DNA from: Squalus acanthias
Taxonomy: Eukaryota
NCBI GenBank assembly: GCA_030390025.1
Contig: CM059432.1
Coordinates: 87,856,001-87,920,000, forward strand
Reading direction: 5' to 3'
Length of the DNA: 64,000 nt
Part shown: one piece after another, positions 2,667 to 46,390 of the stretch
How the letters are laid out: every line of letters begins with the position of its first letter
Numbering within the stretch: the first letter of the stretch is position 1
The notes under the pieces: model-generated
Databases searched by the model: none
What the model was told of the DNA's origin: nothing
What the model saw: the letters and a program-made list of their open reading frames with translations, nothing else
Made by a program: the position numbers and the translations under genes

Positions 2667-3454
2667 TACAGTCTCCACAGATAGGCACAGTACCATCTGA
2701 TTTTGTTTCTTATGTAGGGCCTCAGAATGTCATGGAAAAGGTGTGGTACCGTGTGATATTACAGAAAGCTACATGCAATTTAAAAAAAAATGTGGTTAAT
2801 TATTAACAGCCATGTAAACACTGCCGGTGATTTTATTACTTCCACATTCACATCTGCCCTCTCCACCTGAACTATTGTTTGTTGCTATGGAAGCAAAAGC
2901 AGATGGACTAGGATGACAAGGACGAGTGGCACAAAGAGGTCACCACTCAGCATCAGAACTCACTCTCCGGCAGCTCGTCAACCGATTCACATCCAGTTGG
3001 CTGTGATCTCAATGGATCCCGTTAGGCCTTAATTAGTTCCAGTTTCTTCCAGTTCTTATAAGCTGTTAGGATTTCTTTAAAATATAAATAACTTGGTTAT
3101 TGTAACTGATGTCTCAGAATGCTTGACCGTGCAATCAATAAGAAACATTAGAATGTGTAAATTGCTGACCCACTTAGTTTCTAATCTGAAAGTTAAGAGG
3201 ATTTGAAATTAACTGATTATTCAAAGGATTGTTGAAGGAGTTTTTATGGTGACGGAAATATTCCTGTGCGAGGTTCCTTCAATATTTCCCTTTAATACTA
3301 CACCAGGTTTCAAAATAACTACTTCTTTTGTTAATTTGATTTGTCCACCATGATAAATTCATACAATTACCCATTTTTATTTCATTGTAATTGCAAGCAA
3401 TTTCATTACCTTATTTGACATTGCAATAATCTGCCAATTAAAGATATGTAACTA

Positions 3455-4021
3455 CAGGAAACTCTCTTTTAACCGGCACCTAAATATCCGGAAATCTCTC
3501 TTAACCGGCAAAATTCAGGAGTAGGTTCAGGTAAGTTTTACTATACAGTATATTAGTGGCCGTGTGGCTTTGCTCGCCTCAGAATACTGATTTGTCCCGT
3601 TTTGGGGGTACAGTGATCAGAATGGCAACCCCCCTCCTCTTAGAGTGTTTCTATCATTTATATTTGATGGAATATTTGAATTTCAATGGGTCTCCACGGA
3701 AAAGACAATACCCCGATTCTGACCTTTCGCCCCCACGAAAGGGGGGTCAATGTTCTTCCGACTCGGACCTGTCACCGCCACGGAGGAAGAAGCCGGAGTC
3801 TCGCGATTCGGAACACAGGCCTGGCTCGGGGAGCTCAGACCCATCGCCCCCTCGGCAGAGGCTGCCCTCCCGTAAGCCGGCTCCCTCAGGATATAGGCAG
3901 GCGCATGTCAGTGTGTACGGGGCTCTCGTACATTGGGAGATATAACTCATCCGTTATCCGGATTTTTGATTAACTGGCACCATGCCGGTCCCGTCGGTGC
4001 CGGTTAATAAAGAGTTTCCTG
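3455..4021. mobile_element. Non-autonomous Tc1/mariner (pogo/Tigger-type) TIR element carrying a captured host exon (Pack-TIR)
   Basis: 26-bp TIRs CAGGAAACTCT(C/T)T(T/A)TTAACCGGCACC (24/26 identical). TA on both flanks (3453-3454, 4022-4023). Subterminal TTAACCGG/TTATCCGG repeats. Confidence 0.9.
3688..3900 (+). pseudogene. BUD13: Captured BUD13-like exon fragment (RES-complex splicing factor, DSDLSPPR repeat region)
   Basis: Open frame GSPRKRQYPDSDLSPPRKGGQCSSDSDLSPPRRKK...GSSDPSPPRQR. Repeated (S)DSDLSPPR motifs are characteristic of vertebrate BUD13. The two DSDLSPPR copies differ only at third codon positions. Confidence 0.7.
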
Positions 4022-4764
4022 TAGTATGTAAAAAAATAACACTTCTAATATTCTGCTAGGACCACCATTTAAAATTTGAGTGGGCTGAGCATTCACACAT
4101 GCTGGCAGCCTGATCCTGTTTTCTAACAAAGCACTGGACAGTGATAAATGCTGCATGCTCACCATTTCACTTTTAACTCGGACCTAGTAATTATGTGGGG
4201 GTGGGGTGGGGTGGGGGGGCTGCTGATTAAGATAATTATTATCTTGTGCAGGTTAGAGTAGTCCATGACAGGATTACTTACAATCAGCATTCTCTGTCAC
4301 AGTTCACTTGTGTCCTATGGCATTGCTCATGGGAAGTTAGAAAATATGTTGCTTGATAAGGACAGGAGGATTAGATGGTATATTGGAGATTGAGATAAAA
4401 TTGTACGTGAGAAGGTTATTATATAGTTGGAGAGGTTTGGAAAAAAAGGAAATAAGTATAAAAGTACATTAATGCAGAATATATAAATATATAAATGTTA
4501 TAATAAAAAGTATTAATATATGTAATGCATATATAGTGCACATATATGTGAAACAAACTATTGAGCATTATTTGTATGTAGTATTTTGTATATAAATCAT
4601 ATAATACAAATATTAAAAACGTTTTATAATTTTATGTCCATTTCTCTGGTGACTGTTGGAGGGGGTAAATTGGGGAGTTAGGCTTTAGTGATAGGCTTAA
4701 GGGGAACTATAAAATGTATGGGGAAGAGCGAGACAGAAACAGTTGGAGGACTTGGGGACTTCTG

Positions 4765-6674
4765 GGGACATCTGGGGACTTGTGCCAAAATTGGGAGAGC
4801 TGTCCCACAGACTAGTCAAGCAACAGCCTGACATCATCATACTCACAGAATCATACCTTTCAGACAATGTCCCAAACTCCTCCATCACCATCCCTGGGTC
4901 TGTCCTGTCCCACCAGCAGGACAGACCCACCAGGGGTGGTGGCACAGTGGTATACAGTTGGGAAGGAGTGGCCCTGGGAGTCCTCAACATTGACTCCGGA
5001 CCCCATGAAGTCTCATGGCTTCAGGTCAAGCATGGGTAAGGAAACCTCCTGCTGATTACCACCTACCGCCCTCCCTCAGCTGATGAATCAGTACTCCTCC
5101 ATGTTGAACACCATTTGGAAGAAGCGCAGAATGTACTCTGGGTGGGGGACTTCAATGTCCATCACCAAGAGTGGCTCGGTAGTACCCCTACTGACCGCGC
5201 TGGCCATGTCCTGAAGACATAACTGCCAGTCTGGGCCTGCGACAGGTGGTGAGAGAACCAACATGAGGGAAAAACCTACTTGACCTCGTTCTCACCAATC
5301 TACCTGTCGCAGATGCATCTGTCCATGACAGCATTAGTAGGAGTGACCACCGCACAGCCATTGTGGAGATGAAGTCCCGTCTTCAAACTGAGGACACCCT
5401 CCATCGTGTTGTGTGGCACTACCACCGTGCTAAATGGGATAGACTCAGAACAGATCTAGCAGCTGAAAACTGGGCATCCATGAGGTGCTGTGGGCCATCA
5501 GCAGCAGCAGAATTGTATTCCACCACAATCTGTAAACTCATGGCCTGGCATATTCCACACTCTACCATTACCATCCAGCCAGGGGACCAACCCTGGTTCA
5601 ATAAGGAGTGCAGAAGAGCATGACAGGAGCAGCACCAGGCGTACCTAAAAATGAAGTGCCAACCTGGGGAAGCTGCAACACAGGACTACATGCATGCTAA
5701 AAAGTGGAAGCAGCATGCTATAGACAGGACTAAACGATCCCACAATCAACGGATCAGATCAAATCTCTGCAGTCATACCACATCCTGTCGTGAATGGTGG
5801 TGGACCATTAAACAACTAATGGGAGGAGGAGGCTCCATGAATATCCCCATCCTCAATGATGGTGGAGCCCAGCACGTGAGTGCAAAAGACAAGGCTGAAG
5901 TGTTTGCAACCATCTTCAGCCAGAAGTGCCGAGTGGATGATCCATATCGGCCTACTCCCCAGGTCCCCACCATCACAGAAGCCAGTCTTTAGCCAATTCG
6001 ATTCACTCCACGTGATATCAAGAAACGGCTGAGCACACTGGATACAGCAAAGGCTATGGGCCCCGACAACATCCCGGCTATCGTGCTGAAGACTTGTGCT
6101 ACAGAACTAGCCGTGCCTCTAGCCAAGCTGTTCCAGTACAGCTACAACACTGGCGTCTACCCCGACAATGTGGAAAACTGCCCAGGTATGTCCTGTCCAC
6201 AAAAATCAGGACAAATCCAATATGGCCAATTACCGCCCCATCAGTCTACTCTCAATCATCAGCAAACTGATGGAAGGTGTCATCGACAGTGCTATCAAGC
6301 AGCACTTACTCACCAATAACCTGCTCACTGATGCCCAGTTTGGGTTCCGCCAAGACCACTCGGCTCCAGACCTCATTACAGCCTTGGTCCAAACATGGAC
6401 AAAGGAGCTGAATTCCAGTGGTGAGGTGAGAGTAACTGCACTTGATATCAAGGCAGCATTTGAACAAATGTGGCATCAAGTAGCCCTAGTAAAACTGAAG
6501 TCAATGGGAATCAGGGGGAAAACGCTCCACTGGCTGGAGTCATACCTAGCACAAAGGAAGATGGTTGTGGTGGTTGAAGGTTGAAGGTCAATCATCACAG
6601 CCCCAGGACATCGCTGCAAGGGTTCATCAGGGCAGTGTCCTAGGCTTCAGCTGCTTCATCAATGACATTCCCTC
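4765..6674 (+). mobile_element. LINE family B, 5' part (APE endonuclease plus RT, frameshifted)
   Basis: IWGLVPKLGEL...PDIIILTESYL...DRPTRGGG...GDFN (APE domain); GPDNIP...YRPISLLS...QFGFR...LDIKAAF...QGSVLG (RT domain). Contains stops and frameshifts. Confidence 0.9.
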
Positions 6675-8558
6675 CAACATAAAAGCAGATTGTAAAAGCT
6701 TCTACAAGTATGTAAAAAGAAAAAGATTAGTTAAGACAAATGTAGGTCCCTTATAGTCAGAAATGGGAGAATTTATAATGGGGAACAAGGAAATGGCAGA
6801 GCAATTAAACAAATATTTTGGTTCTGTCTTCATGGAAGAGGACACAAATAACTTCCCAGAAATGTTAGGGAACCAAGGGTCTAGTAAGAAGGAAGAATTA
6901 AAGGAAATTAGTATTAGTAAAAAAATAGTGCTGGTGAAATTAATGGGACTGAAAGCTGATAAATCCCCAGGGCCTGATAATATGCATCCCAGAGTACTAA
7001 AAGAGGTAGCCATGGAAAGAGTGGATGCACTGGTTGTCATCTTCCAAATTCTATAGATTATGGAACAGTTCCTGCAGATTGGAGGGTGGTAAATGTAATC
7101 CCCATTATTTAAAAAAGGAGGGAGAGAAAACAGGGAAATACAGTCCGGTTAGCCGAATATCAGTAGTAGGGAAAATGCTAGAGTATTATAAAGGATGTGA
7201 TAACAGGACACTTAGAAAATATCAATGGGATTAGACAACATCAACATGGATTTATGAAAAGGAAATTGTGTTTGACAAACCTACTGGAGTTTTTTGAGGA
7301 TGTCACTGGTAGAATAGATAAGGGAGAACCAGTGGATGTGGTGTATTTGGATTTTCAGAAGGCCTTTGATAAAGTCCCATATAAGAGGTTAGTGTGCAAA
7401 ATTAATGCACATGGGATTGGGGGTAATATACTGACATGGATTGAAAATTGGTTAACAGACAGGAAACAGAGAGTAGGAATAAATGGGTCTTTTTTGGGGT
7501 GGCAGGCGGTGACTCGTGGGGTACCACAGGGATCAGTGCTTGGGCCCCAGCTATTCACAATATATATCAATGATTTGGATGAGGGAACCAAATGTAATAT
7601 TTCCAAGTTTGCTGATGACATGAAACTAGGTGGGATTGTGAGTTGTGAGGAGGATGCAAAGAGGCTTTAAGGCAATTTAGACAAGTTGAGTGAGTGGGCA
7701 AATACATGGCAGATGCAGTATAACGTGGATAAATGTGAAGTTATCCACTTCGGTAGGAAAAACAGAAAGGTAGAGTACTATTTAAATGGTGCTAGATTGG
7801 GAAATGCTGATGTACAAAGGGACCTGGGTGTCCCTGTAAACCAGTCACTGAAAGCAAACATGCAGGTGCAGCAAGCAGTTAGGAAGGCAAATGGTATGTT
7901 GGCCTTCATTGCAAGAGGATTTGAGTACAGGAAGCAAGGATGTCTTACTACAGTTATACAGAGCCTTGGTGAGACCACACCTGGAGTAGTGTGCACAATT
8001 TTGGTCTCCTTACCTAAGAAAGGATATACTTGCCACAGAGGGAGTGCAGCGAAGGTTCACCAGACTGATTCCTGGGCTGGCAGGACTGTCGTATGAGGAG
8101 AGATTGGGTCGACTAGGCCTGTACTCATTAGAGTTTAGAAGAGTGAGAGGGGATCTCGTTGTAATGTATAAAATTCTGACAGGGCTAGACAGACTGGATG
8201 CAGGGAGGATGTTTCCCCTGGCTTGGGGGGGGGGGGGGGGGGTCTAGAATGAGGGGGTCACAGTCTCAGGATATGGGGTAGGACATTTAGGACTGAGATG
8301 AGGAGAAATTTCTTCACTCAGTGGGTGGTGAACCTATGGAATTCTCGACCACAGAAGGCTGTGGAGGCCAAGTCACTGAATATAATTAAGAAGGAGATAG
8401 ATAGATTTCTAGACACAACAGGCATCAAGGGGTATGGGGAGAGAGCGGGAATATGGTATTGAGATAGAGGATCAGCCATGATCATATTGCATGGCGGAGC
8501 AGGCTCGAAGGGCCGAATGGCCGACTCCTGCTCCTATTTTTCTATGTTTCTATGTTTC
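6675..8558 (+). mobile_element. 5'-truncated CR1 LINE nested in LINE family B
   Basis: RT motifs QHGFMK, YLDFQKAFDKV, GVPQGSVLGP, KFADD; (TTTCTATG)n tail; multiple stops. Confidence 0.95.
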
Positions 8559-9450
8559 TATAAGGTCAGAAATGGGGATGTTCACTGATGACTGCACAGT
8601 GTTCAGCACCATTCACAACTCCTCAGATAATGAAGCAGTCCATGCCCGCATGCAACAAGACCTGGACGACGTTCAGGCTTGGGCTGATAAGTGGCAGGTA
8701 ACATTCGCGCCACAGATGTGCCAGGCAATGACTATCTCCAACAAGCGAGAGTCTAACCACCACCCCTTGACATTCAACGGCTTTACCATCACCGAATCCC
8801 CCACCATCAACATCCTGGGGGTCACCATTCACCAGAAACTGAACTGGACCAGCCACATAAATACTGTGGCAACAAGAGCAGGTCAGAGGCTAGGTATTCT
8901 GCAGCGAGTGTCTCACCTTCTGACTCCCCAAAGCCTTTCTACCATCTACAAGGCACAAGTAAGGAGTGTGATGAAATACTCTCCACTTGCCTGGATGAGT
9001 GCAGCTCCAACAGCACTCAAGAAGCTTGACACCATCCAGGACAAAGCAGCCCATTTGATTGCCACCCGATCCACCACCTTAAACATTCACTCCCTCCACT
9101 ACCGGCGTACCGTGGCTGCAGTGTGTACCATCTACAAGATGCATTGCAGCAACTCGCCAAGGCTTCTTCGGCAGCACCTCCCAAACCCGCGACCTCTTCC
9201 ACCTCCTCCAAGTTCCCCTCCAAGTCACACACCATTCTGACTTAGAAGTATATCGCCGATACTTCATTATCGCTGGGTTAAAATCCTGGAACTCCCTCCC
9301 TAACAGCACTGTGGGAGTACCTTCACCACACGGACTGCAGCGGTTCAAGAAGGCGACTCACTACCACCTTCTCAAGGGCAACTAGGGATGTGCAATAAAT
9401 GCTGGCTTTCCCAGTGACGCTCAGATCCCATAAGCGAATAAAAGAAAAGA
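8559..9450 (+). mobile_element. LINE family B, 3' part (continuation of 4765-6674)
   Basis: Resumes at IRSEMGMFTDD, directly after CFINDIPS at 6650-6675. Ends AATAAA...A-rich tail. Confidence 0.9.
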
Positions 9451-11464: not shown

Positions 11465-13305
11465 TTAAAAAATATCATTCTGGGGATATGCGTGTCACTA
11501 GCAAGCCCAGCATTTATTGACCATCCCTAGTTGCCCTTGAGAAGATGGTGGTGAGCCTTCTTTTTGAACCACTGCAGTCCATGTGATGAAGATACACCCA
11601 AGTTTTGTTAGGTAGGAAATTCCAGGAATTTGACCCAACGACGATGAAGGAACAGCGATATATGTTCAAGTCAGGATGATGTGTAACTTGGAGGGGAACT
11701 TGGACATGATGGCGTTCCCATACACCTGCTGCCCTTGTCCTTCTAGGTGATGGAGGTCGCAGGTTTAAGAGGCGCTGTCAAAGAAGCCTTGGCGAGTTGC
11801 TGCAGTGCATCCTGTGCACCGGTGGTCGAGGGAGTGGATGTTTATGGTGGTGGATGGGCTGCTGATCAAGTGGCCTGCTTTGTCTTGGATAGTGTCAAGC
11901 TTCTTGAGTGTTGTTGTAGCAGCATCCATCCAGGCAAGTGGAGAGTATTCCATCACACTCCTGACTTGTGCCTTGTACGTGGTTCAGAGGCTTTGGGGAG
12001 TCAGGAGGTGAGCCACATGTTGCAGAATACCCAGCTTCTGACCTGCTCTAGTAGCCACAGCATTTATTTGGCTGGTCCAGTTGAGTTTCTGGTCAATGGC
12101 GACTCCCAGGATGTTGATGTTGGGGGATTTGGCGATGGTAATGCCATTGAATGTCAAGGGGAGGTGGTTAGACTCTCTCTTGTTGGAGATGGTCATTGCC
12201 TGGCACTTGTATAATACGAATGTTACTTGTCACTTTTCAGCCCAAGCCTGGATGTTGTCCAGGTCTTGCTGCATGCAACATGGACTGCTTCATTATTTAA
12301 CAAATTGTAAATGGATCATCCACTCAGCACTTCTGGCTGAAGATGGTTGAGAATGCTTCAGCTTGTCTTTTGCACGCACATGCTGGACTCCACCATCATT
12401 GAGCATCGGGACTTTCGTACAGCCTCCTCCTGTAGTTGCTTAATTGTCCTCCACTATTTGTGTCTGGATGTGGCAGGACAGCAGAGCTTTGACCTGATCT
12501 GTTGGTTGTGGGATTGCTTAGCTCTGTCAACAGAATGCTGCTTCCTCTGTTTAGCATGCAAGTAGTCCTGTGTTGTGACACCTCACTTTCAGCTACGCCT
12601 GGCATGCTCTTCTACACTCATTATTGAACCAGGGTTGGTCGCCTGGCTTGATGGAGGAGTGATGGGTATGCCGAGCCGTGAGGTTACAGATTGTGGTGGA
12701 ATACAATTCTGCTGATGATTGCTCATAGCGCCTCATGAATGCCAAGTTTTGAGCTGCCAGATCCGTTCTTAATTTCTTCAACTTAGCACAGTGGTAATGC
12801 CACACAACACGATGGAGGGTGTCCTCAGTCTGGCAGCTATGTCCTTCAGGACTCGGCCAGCTCAGTCAGTGATGGTACTACCGAGCCAATCTTGGTGATG
12901 GATATTGAAGTCGCCCACCCAGAGTATATCCTGTGCCCTTGCTACCCTCAGTGTTTCCTCCAAGTGTTGTTCAATAAGGAGGAGTACTGATTCATCAGCT
13001 GAGGGAGGGCGGTAGGTGATAATCAGCAGGAAGTTTCCTTGTCCATGTTTGACCTGAAGCCATGAGACTTCATGGGGTCCAGAGTCAACATTGCGGACTC
13101 CCAGGGCCACTCCTTCCCGACTGTATACCACTGTGCCCCTGCCTCTGGTGGGTCTGTCCTGCTGGTGGGACAGGACATACCCAGGGATGGTGATGGAGGA
13201 GTCTGGGACGTTGGCTGATATGTAGGATTTTGTGAGTATGACTATGTCAGGCTGTTGCTTGACTAGTCTGTGTAACAGCTTTCCTATCTCTAGCACTAGT
13301 CTCCC
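11465..13305 (-). mobile_element. LINE family B copy with internal deletions
   Basis: APE domain at 12862-13296 (LVKQQPDIVILTKSY...GDFNIHH), RT C-terminus at 11765-12300, 3' tail at about 11465. Confidence 0.9.
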
Positions 13306-13399
13306 TGCCCATTGTCTTTGGTCCTCACTGCAAACTCAATACTGTTGCGACTGGTTCCATCCCCCTGCCCGGCCACTATCTCAGGTTGAACTAGACTAT

Positions 13400-17074: not shown

Positions 17075-18910
17075 TATAAGCTTCTATAGGTATGTTAAAA
17101 GGAAAAGACTGGCGAAGGTAAATGTAGGTCCTTTACAGTTAGAGATGGGAGAATTTATAATGGGGAATGAGGAAATGGCTGGGAAATTAAATAAATACTT
17201 TGTTTCTGTCTTCACGGAGGAAGACACAAAAAACCTCCCAGAAATACGAGAAAACCAAGGGTCTGGCGAGAATGAGGAACTTAAAGAAATTATTATTAGT
17301 AAAAAAACAGTACTAGCAAAATTAATGGGATGAAAAGTCGATAAATCTCAAGGACCGGATGACCGACATCCTAGGGTTTTGAAAGAGGTGGCCATTGGGA
17401 TAGTGGACGCATTGGTTGTCATCTTCCAAAATTCTATAGATTCTGGAACGGTTCCTGCAGATTGGAGGATAGCAAATGTAACCCCGCTATTTAAGAAAGG
17501 AGGGAGAAAGAAAACGGGGAACTACAGACCTGTTAGCTTCACATCAGTAGTTGGGAAAATGCTGGAATCTATTATAAAGGATGCAATAACTGGGCACTTA
17601 GAAACTAATAGTAAGATTGGGCAGAGTCAACATGGATTTATGAAAGGGAAGTCCTGTTTGACAAACCTATTGGAGTTCTTTGAGGATGTAACTAGTGGAG
17701 TAGACAAAGGGGAACCGGTAGATGTGGTGTATTTGGATTTTCAGAAGGCCTTCGATAAGGTCCCACACAAGAGGTTGGTGAACAAAATTAGGGCACATGG
17801 AATTGGGGGTAATATACTAGCATGGATTGAGAATTGGTTAACAGACAGAAAACAAAGAGTAGGGATAAACGGGTCTTTTTCAGGATGGCAGGCTGTGACT
17901 AGTGGGGTACCGCAAGGATTGGTGCTTGGGCCCCAGCTATTCACAAGCTATATCAATGATTTGGATGAGGGGACTAATTGTAACATTTCCAAATTTGCTG
18001 ATGACACAAAGCTAGGTGGCAATGGCAGTTGCGAAGAGGATGTGAAGAGGCTTCAAGGGGATTTCAACAGGCTCAGTGAGTGGACGAGAACATGGCAGGT
18101 GGATTATAATGTGGATAAATGTGAAGTTATCCACTTTGGTAGAAAAAACAGAAAGGCAGAGTATTTCCTAAATGGTGAAAGATTGGGGAATGCAGATGCT
18201 CAAAGGGTCCTGGGTGTCCTTGTACATGAGTCACTGAAAGTGAATGTGCAGGTGCAACAAGCCATTAGGAAGGCAAATGGTATGCTGGCCTTCATTACAA
18301 GAGGATTTGAGCACAGGAGTAAAGAAGTCTTACTCCAATTATGTAGGGCCTTGGTGAGACCACACCTGGAGTACTGTGTACAATTTTGGTCTCCTTACCT
18401 AAGGAAAGATATACTTGCCATAGAGGGAGTGCAACAAAGGCTCACGAGATTGATTCCTGGGATGGCGGGACTGTCGTATGAGAAGAGATTGAGTAAACTA
18501 GGCCTGTATTCTCTTGAATTCAGAAGAATGAGAGGGGATCTCATTGAAGCATACAAAATTATTACAGGGCTTGATAGGGTGGATGCTGGGAGAATGTTTC
18601 CCTTGGCTGGGGAGTCTAGAACCAGGGGCCACAGCCTCAGGAGACCATCGAGATGAGAAGAAATTTCTTTACACAGAGGGTGGTGAATCTTTGGAATTCT
18701 CTACCCCAGAGGGCTGTGGAGGCTCAGTCATTGGGTATATTCAAAACAGAAGTCGATAGATTTCTGACTAGTAAGGGCATCAAGGGATATGGCGATAAGG
18801 CCGGTGAATGGAATTGAGTCAGAAGATCAGCCATGATCTCATTGAATGGCGGAGCAGGCTCGAAGGGCCGAATGGCCTACTCCTGCTCCTATTTCTTATG
18901 TTCTTATGTC
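17075..18910 (+). mobile_element. 5'-truncated CR1 LINE with a 425-aa open RT segment
   Basis: ORF 17379-18656 carries the RT motifs (QHGFMK, YLDFQKAFD, PQG, FADD); (TTCTTATG)n tail. Confidence 0.95.
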
Positions 18911-22602: not shown

Positions 22603-22694
22603 GAGGTGTGTTCGATGGCTCCTGTATGTTGAACCCGTTAAATTAATAATTATGAAAAAGTTGTACACTATTGTACAACTAATGCTAATATAAT

Positions 22695-24358
22695 ATTGGA
22701 AAACCGCAACTGTAACTCCCCTATTCAAGAAAGGAGGCAGACAGGAAGCAGGAAACTATAGGCCAGTTAGCCTAACATCTGTCATTGGGAAAATGCTGGA
22801 ATCCATTAATAAGGAAGTAATAGCAGGACATTTAGAAAATCATAATACAATCAAGCAGATTCAACATGGTTTTATGAAAGGGAAATCGTGTTTGACAAAT
22901 TTACTAGAGTTCTTTGAGGATGTAACGAGCAGGTTGGATAAAGGGGAACCAGTAGTGTATTTGGATTTCAAGAAGGCATTCGATAAGGTGCCGCATAAAA
23001 GGTTAATACACAAGATAAGAGCTCACAGTGTTGGGGGTAATATATTGGGCTGGATATTCTGACCCCCACGGGTGTGTACGAGCTGTATATGCACCTGTAG
23101 GGGCCTCGCAAGTGCCGGTTTCAGGCATGCGAAGCGCACGCGCTAAAACCCGGCACAAGAATTCTCTTGACAGATCCTCCGCCTGCCCGGGAGAGGGGCC
23201 TCCACGGGTGGAGAGTTCCGCTTTCTGTACAACCTCCGCCCGCTGAAAATCTTTAAAAAGCCAGCTTTTACCAGCATAAGAGTTTTAAAAAATAAATAAA
23301 TAAAAAAAATTTCACTCATTTATAATTTAAAAATACTTTAAAAAAGCTAAGTTTATTTTTAGCCCTGTAAAAAGCTTTAATTATTTTTTTCAAAAAATTA
23401 AATTTTTGTTTAAAATATTTAATTTAATGTAATTTTAACTAATTTTAAATACGTGATTTAAAAAAAAATTATTTAATGTTTAACTGTGTTTTTTAAGTGA
23501 TCCCCATTCATACTCTTGACAGATCTATGCGTAGAGCCCTGTCAAAAGTGTGAAGGTGGATTCCCTTCTTTGATTGGTTCTCCACATGATCCCTGGGATC
23601 CTGGGGATGCTTGCGAAGCGCCTGCTCCCCTGGGATACCTGGGCCTCTGCGCGCGCGCACCAGGAGAGGCCCAGGATCAGAAGTGTCGGGACCTATGGAG
23701 CCAGCAGGTAAGTGCGTAGATTTTTCCCGCTCGGAGGCATCCGCACGCAGGAAGCCTCCGATCGGAAAATCCGCCCCATTAGATTGGATAGAGGGTTGGC
23801 TAACTATCAGAAAGCAGAGAGTCGGAATAAATGGGTCATTTTCAGGTTGGCAAACTGTAACTAGTGGGGTGCCACAGGGATCAGTGCCGGGGCCTCAACT
23901 ATTTACAATCTATATTAATGACTTGGATGAAGGGACCGAATGTACTGTAGCCAAATTTGCTGACAATACAAAGATAGATGGGAAAGCAAGTTGTGAGGAG
24001 TACACAAAGAGTCTGTAAAGGGATATAGATAGGTTAAGTGAGTGGGCAAAAATTTGGCAGATGGAGTATAATGTGGGAAAATGTGAGGTTATCCACTTTG
24101 GTAGGAAGAATAGAAAAGCAAAATATTATTTAAATGGAGAGAGACTACAGAATGCTGCGGTACAGAGGGATCTGGGGGTCCTCGTACATGAAACACAAAA
24201 AGTTAGCATGCAGGTACAGCAAGTAATTAGGAAGGCAAATGGAATATTGACCTTTATTGCAAGGGGGATGGAGTATAAAAGTAGGGAAGTCTTGCTACAA
24301 CTGTACAGGGCATTGGTGAGACCACACCTGGAGTACTGCGTACAGTTTTGGTCTCCTT
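22695..24358 (+). mobile_element. CR1 LINE fragment interrupted by a MITE and a second CR1; resumes briefly at 26160-26195
   Basis: RT motifs are continuous across the insertions: ...GGNIL|DWIEGWL... and ...QFWSP|YLRKDILAL. Confidence 0.9.
23047..23777. mobile_element. Harbinger-type MITE
   Basis: Imperfect 13-bp TIR GGGCTGGATATTC / GGGGCGGATTTTC. 3-bp TSD ATT (23044-23046, 23778-23780) inside CR1 coding sequence. AT-rich core. Confidence 0.85.
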
Positions 24359-26155
24359 AGAAACATAGAAACATAGAAGATAGGAGCAGGATTAGGCCAT
24401 TCGGCCCCTCGAGCCTGTTCCGCCATTTAATGAGATCATGGCTGATCATCCAAATTCAGTACCCTGTCCCTGCTTTCTCCCCATATCCCTTGATCCCTTT
24501 AGCCTTAAGAAATATATCTAACTCTTTCTTGAATATATTTAATGAATTGGCCTCAACTGCCTTCTGTGTTAGAGAATTCCACAGGTTCACCACTCTCTGG
24601 GTGAAGAAATTCCTTCTCATCTCAATCCTAAATAACTTAACCCTTATCCTTAGACTGTGACCCCTGGTTCTGGACTCCCCCGCCATCGGGAACATCCTTC
24701 CTGCCTCTAGTCTGTCTAGTCCTGTTAGAATTTTATAAGTTTCAATGAGATCCCCTCTCATTCTTCTAAACTCTAGCGAATACAAGCCCAATCGACCCAA
24801 TCTCTCTTCATACGTCATTCCTGCCATCCCAGGTATCAGTCTGGTGAATCTTCGCTGCACTCCCTCCATGGCAAGAACATCCTTCCTCAGATAAGGCGAC
24901 CAAAACTGCACACAATACTCAAGGTGTGGTCTCACCAAGGCCCTGTGCAACTGCAGCAAGACATCCTTGCTCCTGTACTCGAATCCTCTCGCTATGAAGG
25001 CCAACATACCATTTGCCTTCTTAACCGTCTGCTGCACCTGCATGCTTACCTTCAGCGACTGGTGCACAAGGACACCCAGGTCTCGTTGCACTTCCCCTTT
25101 TCCCAATCTATTGCCATTCAGATAATAATCTGCCTTCCTGTTTTTGCCACCAAAGTGGATAACCTCGCATTTATCCACATTATACTGCATCTGCCATGTA
25201 TCTGCCCAATCACCCAACCTGTCCAAATCATACTGGAGTTTCTCTGCATCCTCCTCACAGCACACACGCCCACCCAGCTTTGTGTCATCTGCAAACTTGG
25301 AGATATTACATCTAGTTCACTCGTCTAGATCATTAATATATATTGTGAATAACTGGGGTCCTAGCACCAATCCCTGCAGTACCCCACTAGTCACTACCTG
25401 CCACTCGGAAAAAGACCCGTTTATTCCAACTCTTTGCTTCCTGTCTGCCAACCAGTTCTCTATCCAAGTCAGTACCTTACCCCCAATCCCATGTGCTTTA
25501 ACTTTGCACGCTAATCTCTTATGCGGGACCTTATCGAAAGCCTTCTGAAAGTCCAAATACACCACAGCCACTGGTTCTCCCTTATCTATTCTACCAGTTA
25601 CATCCTCACAAAATTGCAGTAGATTAGTCAAGCATGATTTACCTTTTGTAAATCCATGTTGACTTTGTCCGATCCTGTCACTGTTTTCCAAGTGCTCTGC
25701 TATTACATCTTTTATAATGGACTCTAGCATTTTCCCCACTACCGATGTCAGGCTTACCGGTCTATACTTCCCCGTTTTCTCTCTACCACCTTTTCTAGAT
25801 AGTGGGGTTACATTAGCTACCCTCCAATCCATGGGAACTGTTCCAGAGTCGATAGAATTTTGGAAGATGACCAGTAATGCATCTACTATTTCTAGGGCCA
25901 CTTCCTTAACTACCCTAAGATGTAGATTATCAGGCCCTGGGGATTTATCGGCCTTCAATCCCGTCAATTTCCCTAACACCATTTCCCTACAAATACTGAT
26001 TTCATTCAGTTCCTCCCTCTCATTAGACCCTATGTTCCCCGACATCTCTGGGAGGTTATTTGTGTCCTCCTTTGTGAAGACAGAACCAAATTTTGTATTT
26101 AATTGGTCTGCCATTTCTTTGTTCTCCATTATAAATTCCCCTGATTCTGACTGCA
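24359..26155 (-). mobile_element. 5'-truncated CR1 LINE nested antisense in another CR1
   Basis: ORFs 25317-26156 and 24456-25265; (TTTCTATG)n tail; TCCTTA duplicated at the flanks. Confidence 0.95.
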
Positions 26156-26195
26156 TATCCTTCCTTACTTAAGGAAGGATATACTTGCCCTGGAG

Positions 26196-28789: not shown

Positions 28790-30245
28790 AGTCATAGAAT
28801 TACATAGAATGTACAGCACAGAAACAGGTCATTCGACCCAACGGGTCCATGCCAGTGTTTATGCTCCACACGAGCCTCCTCCCACTTTATCTAATCCTAT
28901 CAGCTTAACCTTTAGTTAGTCAGACACGACCTTCTCTTAACAAATCCATGCTGACTGTCCTTAATTAATCCGTGCCTTTCTAAATGATGATTAATATTGT
29001 CCCTCAGAATTTTTTCCAATAATTTGCCCACCACCGAGGTTAGGCTGACTGGCCTGTAATTACTCGGTCTATCCCTTTCTCCCTTTTTAAACAACGGCAC
29101 AACATTAGCAGTCCTCCAGTCCTCCAGTCCTCCAGTACCACACCTGTAGCCAGAGAGGATTGGAAAATGATGGTCAGAGCCTCCGCTATTTCTACCCTTG
29201 CTTCTCTTAACAGCCTGGGATACATTTCATCCGTGCCTGGTGATTTATCTATTTTCAAAGATGCTAAACCCCTTAATAGATCCTCTCTCACTATGTTTAT
29301 CTCATCTAATATTTCACACCCCTCCTCCTTAACGACAACGTCTGCATCGTCCCTCTCTTTTGTGAAGACAGATGAAAAGTATTCATTAAGAACCATACCC
29401 ACGTCTTCCACCTCCACACAAAAGCTTTCTTTTTGGTCTCTAATGGGCTCTACTCTTACTTTGGTTATCCTCTTGCTCTTTATGTATTTATAAAACATCT
29501 TTGGGTTTTCCTTGATTTTATTTGCCAATATTTTTTCATGCCCTCTCTTTGCTTTCCTAATTTCCTTTTAAATTTCATCCCTGCACTTTCTATACTCCTC
29601 TAGGCTTTCTGCAGTATTTAGCTTTCAGTATCTGATATAAGTTTCCCTTTTATGCCTTATCCTACCCTGTATTCTCCTTGAAATCCAGGGGGCTCTAGAT
29701 TTGGGAACATATTTGCTCTGAACCCTCACTATCTCCTCCTTGAATGCTTCCCATTGCTCTGACACTGATTTACCTTCAAGTAGCTGTTTCCAGTCCACTT
29801 TTGCTAAATCACTTCTCAGCTTAGTAAGATTGGCCTTTTCCCAATTGAGAATTTTTACTCCTGATCTATCTTTGTCCTTTTCAATAACTAAGCTAAATCT
29901 ACCTGAATTATGATCACTACCATCAGAATGCTCTCCCACTGATACCCCTTCCACCTGCCCAGCTTCATTCCCTAAAAGCAAGACATAACCGCCCCCTCTC
30001 TTGTTGGGCTTGCTGCGTACTGGCTAAAAAAGTTCTGCTGAATGCATTTTAAGAATTCTGCACCCTCTGTACCTTTTACACTGATTCAATCCCAGTTAAT
30101 ATTAGGATAGTTGAAATCTCCTACTATTACTGCCCTATTGTTTTTGCACTTCTCAGAAATTTGCCTGCCTATTTGCTCTTCTATCTCCGTCTGACTATTT
30201 TGGCGTCTATAGTACACTCCCAGCAGTGTGATTGCTCCTTTTTTG
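28790..30245 (-). mobile_element. CR1 LINE with large internal deletion
   Basis: APE/linker through QHGFVKRRSCLTN is joined directly to the 3' UTR and tail at about 28910. Confidence 0.85.
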
Positions 30246-30905: not shown

Positions 30906-33900
30906 AGTTAAAAGTTTAACAGTCGAACTTCTTTGCATCGGAGATGTAAAGTGCTTGTGTAAGGGAATAAGTGTAGGTAATAAAGCGTAGCTTTAGTTTT
31001 AGGGTAATTAAAACAGGAGTAGCAAATCCATTTCAGGAAGTCTTGTTTATAGGAAGTGGTTTGAAGTAAACAATTGCAAACTGTTTACATAGATAGTCTG
31101 TTTTCAAAGGATTTGCGAAATAGATACGTCATTTTGACATTTTCCTTTGATATAGTCAAAAAATGGTATATAAAGGAGCATAGTTTTCAACAGTATCTCA
31201 GAGTGTACTTGAAAGATACAGAAACCAAATATCCACTCTCTGTTTTCAGTTAAAGACCGATCACCTTTACTGTATATCAATAAAGTCTGTTCCGTATACT
31301 CCACTACAAAGCCTCGTCCTTACTCAAAATGTGCTGTTGTGAACCAGAGGAGAAAGGAGGTTGACTCCCTAACATCCTGCTGAAAGAGTATCAGGAGTTA
31401 AGATCTAAATTAAAAAGCAGGACCTCGAGGGTAATAAACTCTGGATTATTGCCCGAGCCATGAACAAATTGGCATAGAAGCAGACAGATCAGGAGAATTA
31501 ACATGTGGCTAAAGGGCTGGTGTTGGAAAGAGGGGTTCCTTTTCATGGGACACTGGCACCAGTTCTGGGACAGGAAGGAGCTGTACCGATGGGACAGGCT
31601 CCACCTGAACTGGGATGGGACCGTGTCCTAGCGGAAAGGGTAAATAGGGAGGTGGCAAAGGCTTTAAACTAATAAGATGGGGAGAGAGATCTACAAGAAA
31701 CGGAACCAGCCTAAACATAAACAAAACAGGAAAAGAGAGCATAGGAAAGAATAAAGTAAGGGAGGACATTGATGGCAAGGGAATAAATAGTTATAGAACA
31801 GGAGTCTAAAAAGATGGCTAAACATAAAGTGAGAGGAAATCCAATTAAAAATGACTTAAACTGTCTGTACAGCAATGCACACAGTATCCGTAATAAAACA
31901 GGGAAGCTGGAGGCAATCATGCATTGCGAGGAACCAGACATAGTAGGGATTACTGAGACATGGCTACAGAAAAATCTGGACTGGGAATTTAACATTGCAG
32001 AGCATTACATATTTAGAAAAGATAGGGAGGGAAAAAGTGGAGGTGGAGTAGCTGTACTTATTAGGGATAACATAATGGTAGTAGAAAAAAGTGACACAGG
32101 TATCAGCAAGACAAAAATAGAATCCATATGGATAGTGATAAAAGATAATAAAGGATCAATCACACTAATAGGCGTAGTCTACAGATGACCTAATAGTGAA
32201 AGGGAGGTGGAGGAAGAAATATGCAGACAAATTAGGGCAATGAGTAAAAAACATAGAATAATAATCATGGGGGATTTCAACTACCTCGATATTAATTGGA
32301 CAGAAGAAGTAAGTAAAGGGGATAAGGGAATGGAGTTCCTACAATGTGTACAGGACTCCTTTCTAACCCAATATGTAAAAAGCCCAACAAGGGAGGATTC
32401 GCTATTGGATCTAATAATGGGGAATGAACCAGAGCAGATAAGAGAAGTAAAAGTAGGGGAACATCTAGGCAATAGTGACCATAATATAATATGCGTTAAG
32501 ATGATAATTGAGAAGGACATAAGCATGATGAAAACCAGGTTAATAGATTGGAGAAAAGCTGATTTTGAGGGGCTGAGAATAGAACTTGGAAAAAGAATGG
32601 GCAACAATATTGGCAAACAACGATGTAGAACAGCAATGGGAAACATTTAAAATGGTGTTCAACAGAGTGCAGGAAAAATAAATTCCGCTGAAAGGAAAGA
32701 ACAAACTAAACAATAATGATACTGCATGGATGAATAAAGCCATAAGGGAAAAATTGAGGGTAAGGAAAGAGGCATACATTAAGTACATAGACAGCCAGGG
32801 AGTGCATGATTAGGAGAATATGAAAAGATTAGGAGAGAAGTCCAAAAAACAATTAGGGAGGCAAAGAGGAACTATGAAATTAAATTATCAAGGAACATAG
32901 AACAAAATAGTAAAATATCTTACAAGCGCATCAATAAAAAAAAGAATGTTGGGATGGGAATAGGGCCATTAAGGGATAGACAGGATAATACCACAGGTAA
33001 CGATAGAGAGATGGCAGAAATATTAAATAATTATTTTGCTTCAGTATTTACCAGGGAGATAGAACAGGTGGACATGACATTGGATGATGAGATTAGCAAT
33101 GAGACAAGTGCATTTAAAATAAAAAGAGGGGATATATTAAATAAACTAATAAAACTCAAAGAGGATAAAACCCCATGTCCGGATGGATTGCATCCACGCA
33201 TTTTAAAAGAATCTAGGGAAGAGATAGCAGAGGCATTACTACACATATTTAATAATTCATTAGAAAAAGGTGTAGTGCCAGAGGACTAGTGGATAGCTAA
33301 CATAATACCTATATTTAAGAAGGGCGATAGAACATGTCCAGGGAATTACAGACCAGTCAGCTTAACATCGGCGGTAGGAAAAATAATGGAATCCCTACTA
33401 AAGGAGAAAATAGAACATCTAGAAACCAAAAATATAATAATGAATAGTCAGCATGGATTTCAAAAGAGAAAGTCTTGCTTGACCAACCTTATTGAACTTT
33501 TTGAAGAGGTAACAGAGAGAGTAGACAATGGTAATGCAGTAGATGTAATTTATCTGGATTTTCAAAATGTCTTCGATAAGGTACCCCATAATAGACTGAT
33601 GAACAGATCAGAGAATGTAGAGTCAGGGGACAAGTAGCAGAATGGATAGTTAGCTGGCCTCAGGACAGAAAGTAGAGAGTGGGGGTAAAGGGTAGCTTTT
33701 CACAGTGGCAGAAGGTGGGTAGTGGTATTCTACAAGGATCAGTGCTGGGACCACTGCTGCTCACAATTTATATTAACGATTTAGACTTAGGAATCAAAAA
33801 CACAATTTCTAAATTTGTGGATGACACCAAATTGGGGGGATAGTCAATACTGAGAAGGACTGCAACAAATTACAGGAGGACATTAATAAACTTGCAGAAT

Positions 33901-37974: not shown

Positions 37975-39110
37975 ATAGAATCATAGAATCATAGAATGGT
38001 TACAGCACGGAAGAAGGCCATTCGGCCCGTCGAGCCCGTGCCAGCTCTCTGCAAGAGCACTTCAGCTAGTCCCAATCCCCCGCCCTTTCCCCATAGCCCT
38101 GCAAATGTTTTTCTTCAGGTACTTATCCAACTCCCTTTTGAAAGGCATGATTGCGTCTGCCTCCACCACCCTTTCAGGCAGTGCATTCCACATCCTAACC
38201 ACTCGCTGCGTAAAAAAGTTTTTCCTCATGTTGCCTTTGGTTCTTTTGCCAATCACCTTAAATCTGTGTCCTCTGGTTTTCGACCCTTCTGCCAATGGGA
38301 ACAGTTTCTCTCTATCTACTCTGTCGAGAGCCCTCATGATTTTGAACACCTCTATCAAATCTCCTCTCAACCTTCTCTGCTCTAAGAAGAACAACCCCAG
38401 CTTCTCCAGTCTATCCATGTAACTGAAGTTCCTCATTCCTGGAAACATTCTCGTAAATCTTTTCTGCACCCTCTCTAAGGCCTTCACATCCTTTCGAAAG
38501 TGCGGAGCCCAGAATTGGCCACAATACTCCACTTGAGGCCGAACCAGTGTTTTATAAAGGTTCATCATAACTTCCTTGCTTTTGTACTCTATGCTTCTAC
38601 TTATGAAGCCCAGGATCCCGTATGCTTTATTAACCACTTTCTCAATCTGCCCTGCCACCTTCAACGATTTGTGCACATATACCCCCAGGTCTCTTTGTTC
38701 ATGCACCCCCTTTAGGATTTTACCGTTTACTTTATATTGCCTCTCTTCATTCCTCCTACCAAAATGTAACACTTCGCATTTTTCTGCAGTAAATTTCATC
38801 TGCCACGTGTCCGCCCATTTCGCCAGCCTGTCTATGTCTTCTTGAAGTCTATCACTATCCTCCTCACGGTTCACTATACTTCCAAGTTTTGTGTCATCTG
38901 CAAATTTTGAAATTGTGCCCTGTACACCCAAGTCCAAGTCATTAATATATATCAAGAAAAGCAGTGGGCCTAGTACTGACCCCTGGGGAACACCACTGTA
39001 TACCTTCATCCAGTCCGAAAAACAACCGTTCACTACTATTCTCTGCTTCCTGTCACTTAGCCAATTTCATATCCATACTGCTGCTGTCCCATTTATTCCA
39101 TGGGATTTAA
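37975..39110 (-). mobile_element. CR1 LINE 3' part (second subfamily, (ATTCTATG)n tail)
   Basis: ORF 38062-39033 GVPQGSVLGP...FADD...; tail (CATAGAAT)n on the + strand. Confidence 0.95.
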
Positions 39111-41690
39111 CATAGAAACATAGAAAAATAGGAGCAGGAGTAGGCCATTCGGCCCTTCGAGCCTGCTCCGCCATTCAATACGATCATGGCTGACCTCTAT
39201 CTCAATACCATATTCCCGCTCTCTCCCCATACCCCTTGATGCCTTTTGTGTCTAGAAATCTATCTATCTCCTTCTTAAATATATTCAGTGACTTGGCCTC
39301 CACAGTCTTCTGTGGTAGAGAATTCCACAGGTTCACCACCCTCTGAGTGAAGAAATTTCTCCTCATCTCAGTCCTAAATCTCCTACCACGTATCCTGAGA
39401 CTGTGACCCCTCATTCTAGACCCCCCAGCTGGGGGAAACATCCTCCCTGCATCCAGTCTGTCTAGCTCTGTCAGAATTTTATATGTTTCCACGAGTTCCC
39501 CTTTCATTCTTCTAAACTCTAGTGAATACAGGCCTAGTTGACCCAATCTCTCCTCATACGACAGTCCTGCCATCCCAGGAATCAGTCTGGTGAACCTTCG
39601 CTGCACTCCCTCTATGGCAAGTATATCCTTTCTTAGGTAAGGAGACCAAAACTGCACACAGTACTCCAGGTGTGGTCTCACCAAGGCCCTGTATAACTGT
39701 AGTAAGACATCCTTGCTCCTGTACTCAAATCCTCTTGCAATGAAGGCCAACATGCCATTTGCCTTCCTAACTGCTTGCTGCACCTGCATGTTTGCTTTCA
39801 GTGACTGGTGTACAAGGACACCAAGGTCCCTTTGTACATCAACATTTCCCAATCTATCACCATTTAAATAATACTCCGCCTTTCTGTTTTTCCTACCGAA
39901 GTAGATAACTTCACATTTGTCCACGTTATACTGCATCTGCCATATATATGCCCACTCACTCAACTTGTCTAAATCGCCTTGAAGCCTCTTGGCATCCTCC
40001 TCACAACTCACAATCCCACCTAGTTTTGTGTCATCAGCAAACTTGGAAATATTACATTTGGTTCCCTCATCCAAATCATTGATATGTATTGTGAATAGCT
40101 GGGGCCCACTAGTACCCCACTAGTCACCGCCTGCCACCCCGAAAAAGACCCATTTATTCCTACTCTCTGTTTCCTGTCTGTTAACCAATTTTCAATCCAT
40201 GCCAGTATATTACCCCCAATCCCATGTGCTTTAACTTTGCACACTAACCTCTTATGTGGGACTTTATCAAAGGCCTTCTGAAAATCCAAATACACCATAT
40301 CCACTGGTTTTTCCTTATCTATTCTACCAGTGACATCCTCAAAAAACTCCAGTAGGTTTGTCAAACACGATTTCCCTTTCATAAATCCATGTTGACTTTG
40401 TCTAATCCCGTTGATGTTTTCTAAATGTCCTGTTATCACATCCTTTATAATAGACTGTAGCATTTTCCCTACTACTGATGTTAGGCTAACTGGTCTGTAG
40501 TTCCCTGTTTTCTCCCTCCCTCCTTTTTTAAAGAGTGGGGTTACATTTACCACCCTCCAATCTGCAGGAACTGTTCCATAATCTATAGAATTTTGAAAGA
40601 TGACAACCAATGCATCCATTATTTCCATGGCTACCTCTTTTAGTACTCTGGGCTGCATATTATCAGGCCCTGGGGATTTATCAGCTTTCAGTCCCATTAA
40701 TTTCTCCAGCACTATTTTTTTACTAATACTAATTTCCTTTAATTCCTCCTTCTCACTAGACTCTTGGTTCCCTAGCATTTCTGGGAAGTTATTTGTGTCC
40801 TCTTCTGTGAAGACAGAACCAAAGTATTTGTTTAATTGCTCTGCCATTTCCTTGTTCCCCATTATAAATTCTCCCATTTCTGACTGTAAGGGACCTACAT
40901 TTGTCTTCACTAATCTTTTTCTTCTTACATACTTGTAGAAGCTTTTACAATCCGCTTTTATGTTCCTTGCAAGTTTACTCTCATACTCTATTTTTCCCCT
41001 CTTAATCAATCTCTTGGTTCTTTTTTGCTGGAGTCTAAACTGCTCCCAATCCTCAGGCTTGCTACTTTTTCTGTCAACTTTATATGACTCCTCTTTGGAT
41101 CTAATACTATCCTTAATTTCTTTTGTTAGCCATGGTTCGGACGCTTTTCCTTTTGTGTTTTTGCGCCAGAAAGGAATGTATAACTGTTGTAATTCATGCA
41201 TTCATTCCTTAAATGTTAGCCATTGCCTATCCACTGTCATGCCTTGTAATGAAGCTCCCCAATCTATCATAGCCAACTCACTCCTCATACCTTCGTAGTT
41301 TCCTTTGTTTAGATTTAGGACCCTAGTTTCAGATTGGACTTCTTTACTTTCCATCTTAATGAAGTATTCTATCATGTTATGGTCACTCTTCCCTAAAGGA
41401 CCCTGTACAACAAGATTATTCATTAACCCTTCTCATTGCACAATACCCAATGTAGGATAGCCTGTTCCCTAGTTGGCTCCTCAATGTACTGGTCTAAAAA
41501 AACATTTCGTACACACTCCAGGAATTCATTCTCCACAGTATTATTGCTAATTTGGTTTGGCCAGTCTATATGTAGATTAAAGTCACCCATGATTACTGTA
41601 GTACGCTTGTTACATGCATCTCTAATTTCCTGTTTGATGCCATCCCCTACATTACCACTACTGTTTGGAGGGCTATAGACAACTCCCACC
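39111..41690 (-). mobile_element. Young-looking CR1 LINE, 5'-truncated within the APE domain
   Basis: ORFs 41423-41740, 40020-41201 and 39202-40074 tile ORF2 with few disruptions; (TTTCTATG)n tail. Confidence 0.95.
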
Positions 41691-45234: not shown

Positions 45235-46390
45235 GAACTGCTCTGACGATGCCACTTTCCATACTAATGCTTCCGACATGTCTTCGTTTTCCTCAACCGA
45301 GGATTCCCCTCTACTGTGGTTGACACGGCCCTTGACCGTGTCCGTTCTATTTCCCGCACTTCTGCTCTCACCCCTTCCCCTCCCTCCCGGAACCACGGTC
45401 CTCACCTTTCACCCCACCAGCCTTCACATTCAACAGATCATCCTCCGCCATTTCCGCCACCTCCAGCGTGATCCCACCATCAAACACATCTTCCCCTCAA
45501 CTCCCCTTTCAGCATTCCGAAGGGACCGTTCCCTCCGCGACACCCTGGTCCTCTCCTCTATCACCCCCAACACCCCTTCCCCTTCGCCTGGCACCTTCCC
45601 GTGCAAGCGCAGGAGATACAACACATGCCCTTTTATCTCCTCCCTTCCCACTGTCCAGGGCCCCAAATACTCCTTCCAGGTGAAACAGCGATTTACTTGT
45701 ACTTCTTGCAATTTAATATACTGTATTCGCTGCTCACGATGCGGTCTCCTCTACATTGGGAAGACCAAACGTAGATTGGGTGACCGCTTTGCGAAACACC
45801 TCCATTCAGTCCGTAAGGTTGACCCTGAGCTTCCGGTCGCCTGTCACTTTAATTCACCGCTCCACTCTCACTCAGACCTCACCATCCTCGGCCTCTTACA
45901 CTGTTCCAATGAAGCTCAACGTAAGCTTGAGGAACAGCACCTCATCTTTCAACATCAAGTTCAACAATTTCAGACCATAACCTCTGCCCCTATCTTTTTT
46001 TTCCATTTTATTTTCTCTCTCACATGGCAGGTGTCTTTCATTCTGCCATTGCCATTTACACTTCATCTAGAGCCATCTTTTGTTTCTTAACTTGTCCCAT
46101 TACCATCTCCTTTTGCCTTGCACCATCATCCCTTTTGTCTCTTAATCTCTCCTGCCTTTTATCCTATCACAGAACTTCCCTTTTGTTCTTTCTGCCCCGC
46201 CCCCCTTTCCCTGCCCCTACACTTGCTTAAAAACCTGTTCCATCTCCAGCTTTTTCCAGTTCTGATGAAGGGTCATCGACCTGAAACGTTAATTCTGTTT
46301 CTCTCCACAGATGCTGCCTGACCTGCTGAGTATTCCCAGCATTTTCTCTTTTTATTTCAGATTTCCAGCATCCACAGTATTTTGCTTTTG
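45235..46390 (+). mobile_element. Penelope-like element 3' part: GIY-YIG endonuclease plus pseudo-LTR
   Basis: FPCKRRRYNTC...FTCTSCNLIYCIRCSRCGLLYIGKTKRRLGDRFAKH...VACHFN. Confidence 0.9.
46257..46294 (+). ncRNA. Minimal type I hammerhead ribozyme motif in the Penelope pseudo-LTR
   Basis: AGTT-CTGATGA-AGGGTC ATC GACCT-GAAA-CGTT-AATT. Confidence 0.7.

Follow-up and report, generated by a model that had tools for sequence, protein, structure and literature searches.

A fragment of a BUD13 exon carried at hundreds of loci by Pack-TIR elements of the Tigger type in Squalus acanthias

RESULTS

Structure of the element and its surroundings

The window, a 64,000-nucleotide stretch of the Squalus acanthias genome (contig CM059432.1, hereafter C8, of assembly GCA_030390025.1, positions 87,856,001 to 87,920,000), contains a short transposable element (Table 1). 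In agreement with the initial annotation, which had been made from the sequence alone, the element is bounded by 26-bp TIRs, identical at 24 of 26 positions and separated by 515 nt, and by a TA target duplication, and its open frame encodes DSDLSPPR twice (3715-3738 and 3760-3783) and SDPSPPR once. The element is short, has no transposase, exists in high copy number and has its ends in common with an autonomous partner, and is thus a MITE; the match of its ends to this DD32D partner also bears out the earlier assignment to the pogo/Tigger type as a non-autonomous member. The open frame had been described as BUD13-like. Real BUD13 coding sequence is indeed present, limited to 3688-3891 and not extending over the whole frame. 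An ATG at 3622 opens 107 aa in frame with the BUD13 part, and a Pfam search of the 136-aa frame returned 0 families.

Among the best 40 of 2,079 matches scored, at least 20 were full-length copies (window copy included) with 90-100% identity, located at unrelated loci with unrelated flanks and having TA at both ends in nearly all cases, which shows that the element is not a product of chance. The reversed-pattern controls for the genome pattern counts reported below all gave 0. No host gene was found around the window copy among 66 frames of at least 120 codons, a length that short exons would escape. The weak GIY-YIG match elsewhere in the window is possibly a Penelope-type element.

Table 1. 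Features of the element and of the rest of the window (window coordinates)
Feature	Position	Strand	Remark
Left TA target-site duplication	3453..3454	.	
Left 26-bp TIR	3455..3480	+	3455-3517 in common with autonomous Tigger-type elements, 87-94%
Interior of the cargo-free parent MITE	3518..3687	+	20 bp missing (deletion)
Chimeric open frame, 136 codons	3535..3945	+	MITE sequence, BUD13 frame and swapped arm
Internal fragment of BUD13 exon 6 (cargo), 204 nt	3688..3891	+	198/204 identical to the donor
Remnant of the parent MITE, 4-5 nt	3892..3896	+	Right of the capture junction
3' arm from the 364-bp sister subfamily	3897..4021	+	96% identical
Part of the 3' arm common to autonomous elements	3935-4021		
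Right 26-bp TIR	3996..4021	-	
Right TA target-site duplication	4022..4023	.	
LINE-type reverse transcriptase/endonuclease fragments	6123-9237, 12865-13335, 17334-18653, 22694-26168		
Further LINE-type fragments	31787-32647, 38065-41201, 48409-49211		
GIY-YIG and Haspin-like kinase	45230-46087 and 29043-29567		Weak matches below Pfam cut-offs
DDE_Tnp_4 (Harbinger-type) transposase pieces and a weak Myb/SANT match	52799-53563, 57380-57910, 59794-60159		

Origin of the cargo

The top three matches of the translated cargo were shark BUD13 proteins (E 6e-22 to 3e-20, 71-78% identity), and at the nucleotide level the cargo was 97% identical (E 3e-96) to exon 6 of BUD13, at G000:C22:64252232-64252029 on the minus strand. 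Exon numbers come from tblastn mapping, which placed 11 exons over about 18 kb. The initial annotation would have been overturned by the lack of any matching host gene or by the window locus being the true BUD13 exon. The former is answered by this match, and the latter is ruled out because the gene lies on C22 and the window copy on C8. Among the scored matches there was a single TIR-free donor, making the source locus unambiguous. Across copies, the donor match was 97-100% over exactly the same interval, and a single one of the 204 sites separates the present BUD13 gene from the captured state. A search of the genome for the Bud13 Pfam family yielded the C22 gene and a degenerate C13 copy (5/5 candidates), with no retrocopy among these five. 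The C13 copy (G000:C13:35041247-35041739) is partial, comprising two 3' exons separated by a short gap, with 69-82% amino acid identity and one stop, and does not include exon 6.

Exon 6 is 281 nt long; the cargo begins 38 nt past its acceptor and stops 39 nt before its donor site, so that no splice site or intron was taken along. The cargo has a GC content of 65%, and the donor segment contains 19 CpG. The initial annotation had envisaged a host exon with intron-like flanks, captured at the DNA level. The cargo is instead internal to the exon and its flanks are those of the parent MITE described below: the interior at 3518-3687 matched neither a BUD13 intron nor the two autonomous elements compared, and the other parts of the element had no significant match in 30 kb of the BUD13 gene. 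A BUD13 intron origin of the flanks was thus rejected. With the cargo wholly within one exon and MITE sequence on both sides, capture at the DNA level cannot be read from the BUD13 cargo. The two DSDLSPPR copies differ at six third positions, which had been taken as a sign of past protein-level selection; five of the six exist in the host exon as well, and the remaining one, also synonymous, is a CpG transition private to the window copy, so that the reading holds for BUD13 before capture and not for the element.

No family sequence was present around the donor in C22:64.14-64.37 Mb (230 kb). Intron 5 of BUD13 contains a tandem array of a ~67-nt unit (G000:C22:64252330-64252660) that ends ~100 nt upstream of the captured segment and is a possible candidate for a fork-stalling site.

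Capture into a cargo-free MITE

A cargo-free parent MITE of 569-600 bp, having the same left and right interior as the carriers, was found in 17 matches (L061, L062, L076-L092). Comparison with this parent showed that 47 nt were exchanged for the 204-nt cargo. The alignments were clean, with a blunt left junction (0 nt) and a 2-nt microhomology at the right junction that was not significant (chance P about 0.15). Sequence common to the parent and the autonomous element is confined to ~63 nt at the left end and ~87 nt at the right end. A 39-mer and a 36-mer of the parent interior gave 16 and 42 matches, respectively (up to 3 mismatches), corresponding by coordinates to 27 carriers and 15 cargo-free copies. 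All were at known element loci, and there is thus no separate donor of this interior within 3 mismatches. None of the 17 parent copies was on C22. Together with the lack of family members within 230 kb of the donor, this leaves no cis link between donor and recipient. L093 is a form related to the parent MITE (L081) whose interior is filled with a tandem 29-nt unit, which also occurs in the right arm of the BAZ1A carrier described below.

Distribution and relationships of the carriers

A 32-mer of the cargo (up to 3 mismatches) matched 778 places (395 forward and 383 reverse; control 0), one of which is the BUD13 gene, giving ~777 carriers against 17 copies of the direct cargo-free parent. Copies with and without cargo, both envisaged by the initial annotation, therefore exist. 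The right capture junction was present at 106 places and the left junction of the full 204-nt cargo at 28 loci; from these three counts, ~78 copies are of mid length and ~670 are short. A sample of 60 loci was drawn from 100 exact-match loci, comprising 56 of 59 on C1 (three C1 loci already in hand were left out) and 4 on C2. It consisted of 55 copies of a ~332-bp form with 102 nt of cargo and 5 of a ~550-bp form with at most 189 nt, and 59 of the 60 had TA on both sides. As a whole, the family end pattern had 19,525 matches, or roughly 10,000 elements if both ends match; carriers are thus less than a tenth of the family, and BUD13-free subfamilies occupied 20 of the 20 TIR loci fetched.

The carriers fall into forms of ~726 bp (full cargo), ~550 bp and 332 bp and the 567/588-bp form of the window. 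For their comparison, L029 and L030 (the same loci as L026 and L022) and L028 and L071 (no TIR pair found) were left out, and identical sequences were collapsed before the cargo was compared. The 550- and 332-bp forms have one left deletion in common, whereas the full and 550-bp forms have a common right junction. At cargo position 175, which is T in the host, C was found in 25 of 26 copies with the full cargo and in 17 of 17 of mid length, and a change present in 44 of 44 short copies was also present in 11 of 17 mid-length copies. These nested deletions and the common junction and changes indicate one capture followed by trimming. The 332-bp form is 94-99% identical to the host exon, and five copies of it at different loci were identical to one another. 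The cargo of L022, L024 and L026 has a 135-nt internal tandem duplication (element positions 286-420).

Autonomous elements and replacement of ends

A transposase frame was present at two of the 20 TIR loci fetched, both occupied by elements of 2.5-2.7 kb. Among the best 79 of 2,337 transposase matches scored, 59 had a stop-free frame of 604 codons or more, with 98-99% identity. The 12 copies fetched were 2.6-2.75 kb long and flanked by TA on both sides; all 12 had the DD32D triad, 11 encoded 585 aa, and their ORFs diverged pairwise by 0.2%. The transposase has CENP-B_N, HTH_Tnp_Tc5 and DDE_1 domains, and among named proteins it is closest to 'jerky protein homolog' (JRK-type), with 64-74% for the best matches. 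Judging from these sequences, a very young DD32D Tigger-type transposon is likely to mobilise the carriers, and we infer that the family, with its young, low-divergence copies, may be active today. L194:1390-3144, like other loci, holds such a very young Tigger/JRK-type transposon and is a candidate active element. Several transposase copies, most with a stop or a shortened frame, are clustered on an unplaced contig (G000:C3806).

The window copy is chimeric, its last 125 nt from the 364-bp subfamily replacing the right interior of the parent. On the lineage to the short form, a single step altered several sites of the left 62 nt together, giving a variant that also occurs in subfamilies descended from the autonomous element; the interior remained 97-99% identical. 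Relative to the autonomous ends (left 62 nt/right 45 nt), the parent had 9/5-6 differences, full-cargo copies 8-10/5-7, and later classes 2/5, 2/1 and then 1/1 (332-bp form), as counted in one or two representatives of each of four or five classes. Copy number rose (17, ~28, ~78 and ~670) as the end differences fell, length and end match being confounded.

A second captured gene

The same ends (90-97% left, 83-92% right) occur on a 461-bp element, L205:2910-3370, that carries part of BAZ1A. Its 55-codon frame, which includes PHD, is 98% identical over its full length to the best ray and shark BAZ1A proteins; the coding part stops at GT and is followed by AT-rich sequence. The family has thus captured at least two genes, in separate elements. 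The first 96 nt of this carrier are 97% identical to the 364-bp subfamily, including 18 nt that encode VFLHLS in the BAZ1A frame.

The 364-bp subfamily (L102:203-566; at least 150 copies) has a CpG-rich interior after the 18-nt BAZ1A remnant. Judged by this remnant, the subfamily probably descends from a BAZ1A carrier and later gained the CpG-rich piece, possibly a third captured fragment; it would then have supplied the 3' arm of the window copy. A donor of the CpG-rich interior was not found among the best 40 of 197 and 150 of 5,292 matches, the searches being crowded by copies, and two frames in this interior had no Pfam match.

Decay of the cargo and its presence in sequencing runs

Among 88 distinct copies, 74 private changes comprised 15 synonymous (~22 expected given the site classes), 57 replacement and 2 stops, and 12 of 12 distinct cargo indels shift the frame. 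Selection on the captured frame, as in Pack genes of the Ssk-FB4 type, was not found, and the cargo decays neutrally. Its divergence from the captured state at non-CpG sites is 1.0-1.7%, and 65 of the 88 copies have no stop or indel in it. CpG sites of the cargo mutate ~3 times faster than its other sites in copies with the full cargo and in the 332-bp form, the pattern that methylation would produce, and not in the 189-nt form. In the 332-bp form an AG closely precedes the cargo, and GTAAGT donors are located at positions 65 and 247.

Four of 10 runs were compared, the contigs of which are only guessed to be RNA and therefore show presence, not transcription. Contigs with the joint of the 332-bp form were found in runs X1 (organism A), X4 and X5 (organism B), and one X4 contig crosses the right capture junction, extending 60 letters on one side and 32 on the other. 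The left MITE interior (L025:1618-1729) had no cover in the four runs. The run of organism C contained the same MITE ends; the capture junction was not seen in it, which is not evidence of absence. In organism C, the exon is covered by a contig that has a 6-nt insertion and 12 differences relative to L025, of which three are private to L025. If this contig is the BUD13 of organism C, the capture is younger than the split from that organism. At L025:1754-1868, contigs of X4 and X5 have ~375 unmatched letters followed by the beginning of the full cargo and, after it, the right arm of the 332-bp form, and are probably assembly chimeras of a host transcript and the element.

DISCUSSION

The carriers are best explained, with good confidence, as a multicopy Pack-TIR hitchhiking on a young Tigger-type family, the cargo having been amplified as a passenger after capture during gap repair. 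The comparisons show the following history. A cargo-free MITE of ~570 bp lost 47 interior nt and gained 204 nt of BUD13 exon 6, once, and the ~726-bp product moved by TA-targeted transposition to many chromosomes. Trimming and re-fitting then produced the ~550-bp form (189-nt cargo), the 332-bp form (102-nt) and the 567/588-bp form of the window with its sister 3' arm, and the left and right ends gave way stepwise to ends of the newest autonomous lineage. The capture and the swaps of arms and of ends could all represent template switches in the repair of a double-strand gap, left by excision or arising at a stalled fork, with chromosomal DNA as the most likely template. The 585-aa DD32D transposase would work in trans, and the 332-bp form may have become dominant through its shortness and end match, not its cargo. 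As the microhomology is within chance and the left junction blunt, we infer the repair pathway only.

The template may alternatively have been RNA, with BUD13 mRNA, pre-mRNA or cDNA made by a LINE reverse transcriptase patching the MITE gap and the later history being the same. The cargo is fully exonic, the donor chromosome differs from that of every parent copy found, and LINE-type reverse transcriptase fragments fill the window. However, no carrier examined has an exon-exon junction or poly(A), no BUD13 retrocopy was among the five Bud13 candidates, and the BAZ1A cargo passes a GT donor, which excludes a spliced mRNA there if the tail is intron. Furthermore, of 204-nt pieces that overlap the 281-nt exon by at least 100 nt, about one in four would lie entirely within it. 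We thus regard an RNA template as rather unlikely.

The cargo could act at the RNA level, in line with the suggestion of the initial annotation that the element might supply BUD13-homologous RNA, with antisense or small RNAs pairing with BUD13 mRNA over 102-204 nt and either tuning BUD13 or making the host spare the elements from silencing. Consistent with such a role, the 332-bp form is close to the host exon, carriers occur in both orientations and outnumber the direct cargo-free parent, bud13 is needed for early zebrafish development (PMC6047831), and small-RNA pairing is raised for Pack-TIRs in the text of Tan et al. (PMC8277862). On the other hand, carriers form only a small part of the family, the TIR loci fetched were all BUD13-free, amplification goes with end match and loss of cargo, not gain, and the faster CpG mutation of the full-cargo and 332-bp forms is that of methylated copies. 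An effect of this kind is therefore improbable. Equally doubtful as a whole is a wider reading in which a still-active Tigger family would behave like the Pack systems of plants, collecting host gene fragments one after another (BUD13, BAZ1A and probably a third, CpG-rich piece) and preserving their mobility through end swapping, with germline small RNAs from the ~780 BUD13-bearing copies coupling transposon silencing to the expression of an essential splicing factor. Serial capture and end swapping did take place in this family; the coupling through BUD13 RNA is conjectural.

The initial annotation had also raised the element as an exon-shuffling vehicle, a proposal now weakened because no host splice site is carried. 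A coding role, as a new peptide or through splicing into host genes, would draw on the window ATG in frame with BUD13, the many copies free of stops and indels, and the AG and GTAAGT donors of the 332-bp form. Yet there is no purifying selection, all indels shift the frame, and frames should still be open when divergence is 1-2%. The length of the putative cassette, 164 nt, is not divisible by three, and the cargo consists of low-complexity repeats and lacks the Bud13 Pfam domain, making such a role very unlikely. Chance resemblance, a segmental duplicate or a real BUD13 exon, suggested only by the low complexity of the SPPR repeats, can safely be set aside given a match of 198/204 to one exon of an 11-exon gene without nearby TIRs that ends exactly at MITE sequence on both sides.

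The plant Pack-MULE, Pack-CACTA and Pack-Mariner are non-autonomous TIR elements that, within one family, carry fragments of several genes. The shark family differs in belonging to a vertebrate and to the pogo/Tigger type, and its two proven cargos are on different elements. In vertebrates, the capture of genes at high copy number is already known through another element class, the Helitrons. In bats, 54 genes and 12,382 copies of host fragments are given by Thomas et al. (2014, PMC4224331); these resemble the shark carriers as high-copy vertebrate gene fragments and differ in moving by a rolling circle and having no TIRs.

The transposase can be compared with Tigger of the pogo superfamily, for which Gao et al. 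(2020, PMC7386202) give a TA target, 8-33-bp TIRs, a single ORF and DD29-36D, and from which JRK is derived. DD32D lies within this range, and the CENP-B_N, HTH_Tnp_Tc5 and DDE_1 domains agree likewise. By these features, which pogoR has too, the predicted protein fits Tigger as defined there. At least 59 open ORFs in the shark compare with a vertebrate maximum of ~8 intact copies in a limited survey with its own criteria (PMC9219625).

The closest known systems are the animal Pack-TIRs (Tan et al., 2021; PMC8277862), of which 370 are described in the main text, without mention of 'shark'; the same text describes them as nearly all single-copy and arising without transposition, 4 (1.4%) being multicopy, with frog examples of 3 and 5 copies. 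Like them, the BUD13 carrier is bounded by TIRs and encloses a piece of host sequence whose parental locus is unlinked; its cargo is GC-rich, as in the multicopy cases. Host sequence lies between both TIR flanks of one element, its 204 nt and 97% identity to the donor are within the limits of 100-5000 bp and at least 90%, the donor is free of a TIR element, and several loci have their own target-site duplications. Microhomology in Pack-TIRs has a median of 2 bp (0 and 2 nt here), and the replaced gap a median of 4.6% of the element (47/569, or 8%, here) (PMC8277862). A family element near the parental gene, as expected under FoSTeST, where excision follows capture, was not found within 230 kb of BUD13, and with the cargo inside one exon, no exon junction or poly(A) pointing to a retroduplicate was seen. 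The published pipeline demands a unique best match and annotated TE ends (PMC8277862), and high-copy cases could thus be missed. The BUD13 carrier fails the unique-best-match filter because sister copies score higher, which is a rule of detection, not a property of the class. The shark family differs from the Pack-TIRs described in that main text in its ~777 carriers instead of a few copies, its coding cargo, the fragment of a second gene and the exchange of ends among carriers (PMC8277862). Ssk-FB4 of Drosophila, as described in the same text, is likewise a TcMariner-type element that amplified captured coding sequence; it involves a nearly whole gene at three loci that is translated and positively selected, whereas the BUD13 cargo is neutral and at hundreds of loci (PMC8277862).

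In the literature searched, which included few subscription journals and neither Repbase nor Dfam, there was no report of a BUD13-carrying element or of a vertebrate TIR capture at this copy number. One capture at ~777 loci is two orders of magnitude above the vertebrate examples of 3-5 copies. One genome contains the donor exon together with the cargo-free parent, the intermediates and dozens of open transposase genes. Capture, trimming and end exchange can thus be followed in full, and the capture mechanism can be tested with the native transposase. The second captured gene suggests that such cases may hide inside repeat consensus sequences, and in practical work the carriers will interfere with assembly, repeat masking and the mapping of reads at BUD13. 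The shark family is thus a Pack-TIR by membership, and is new in its scale, its two cargos and the traceable exchange of its ends.
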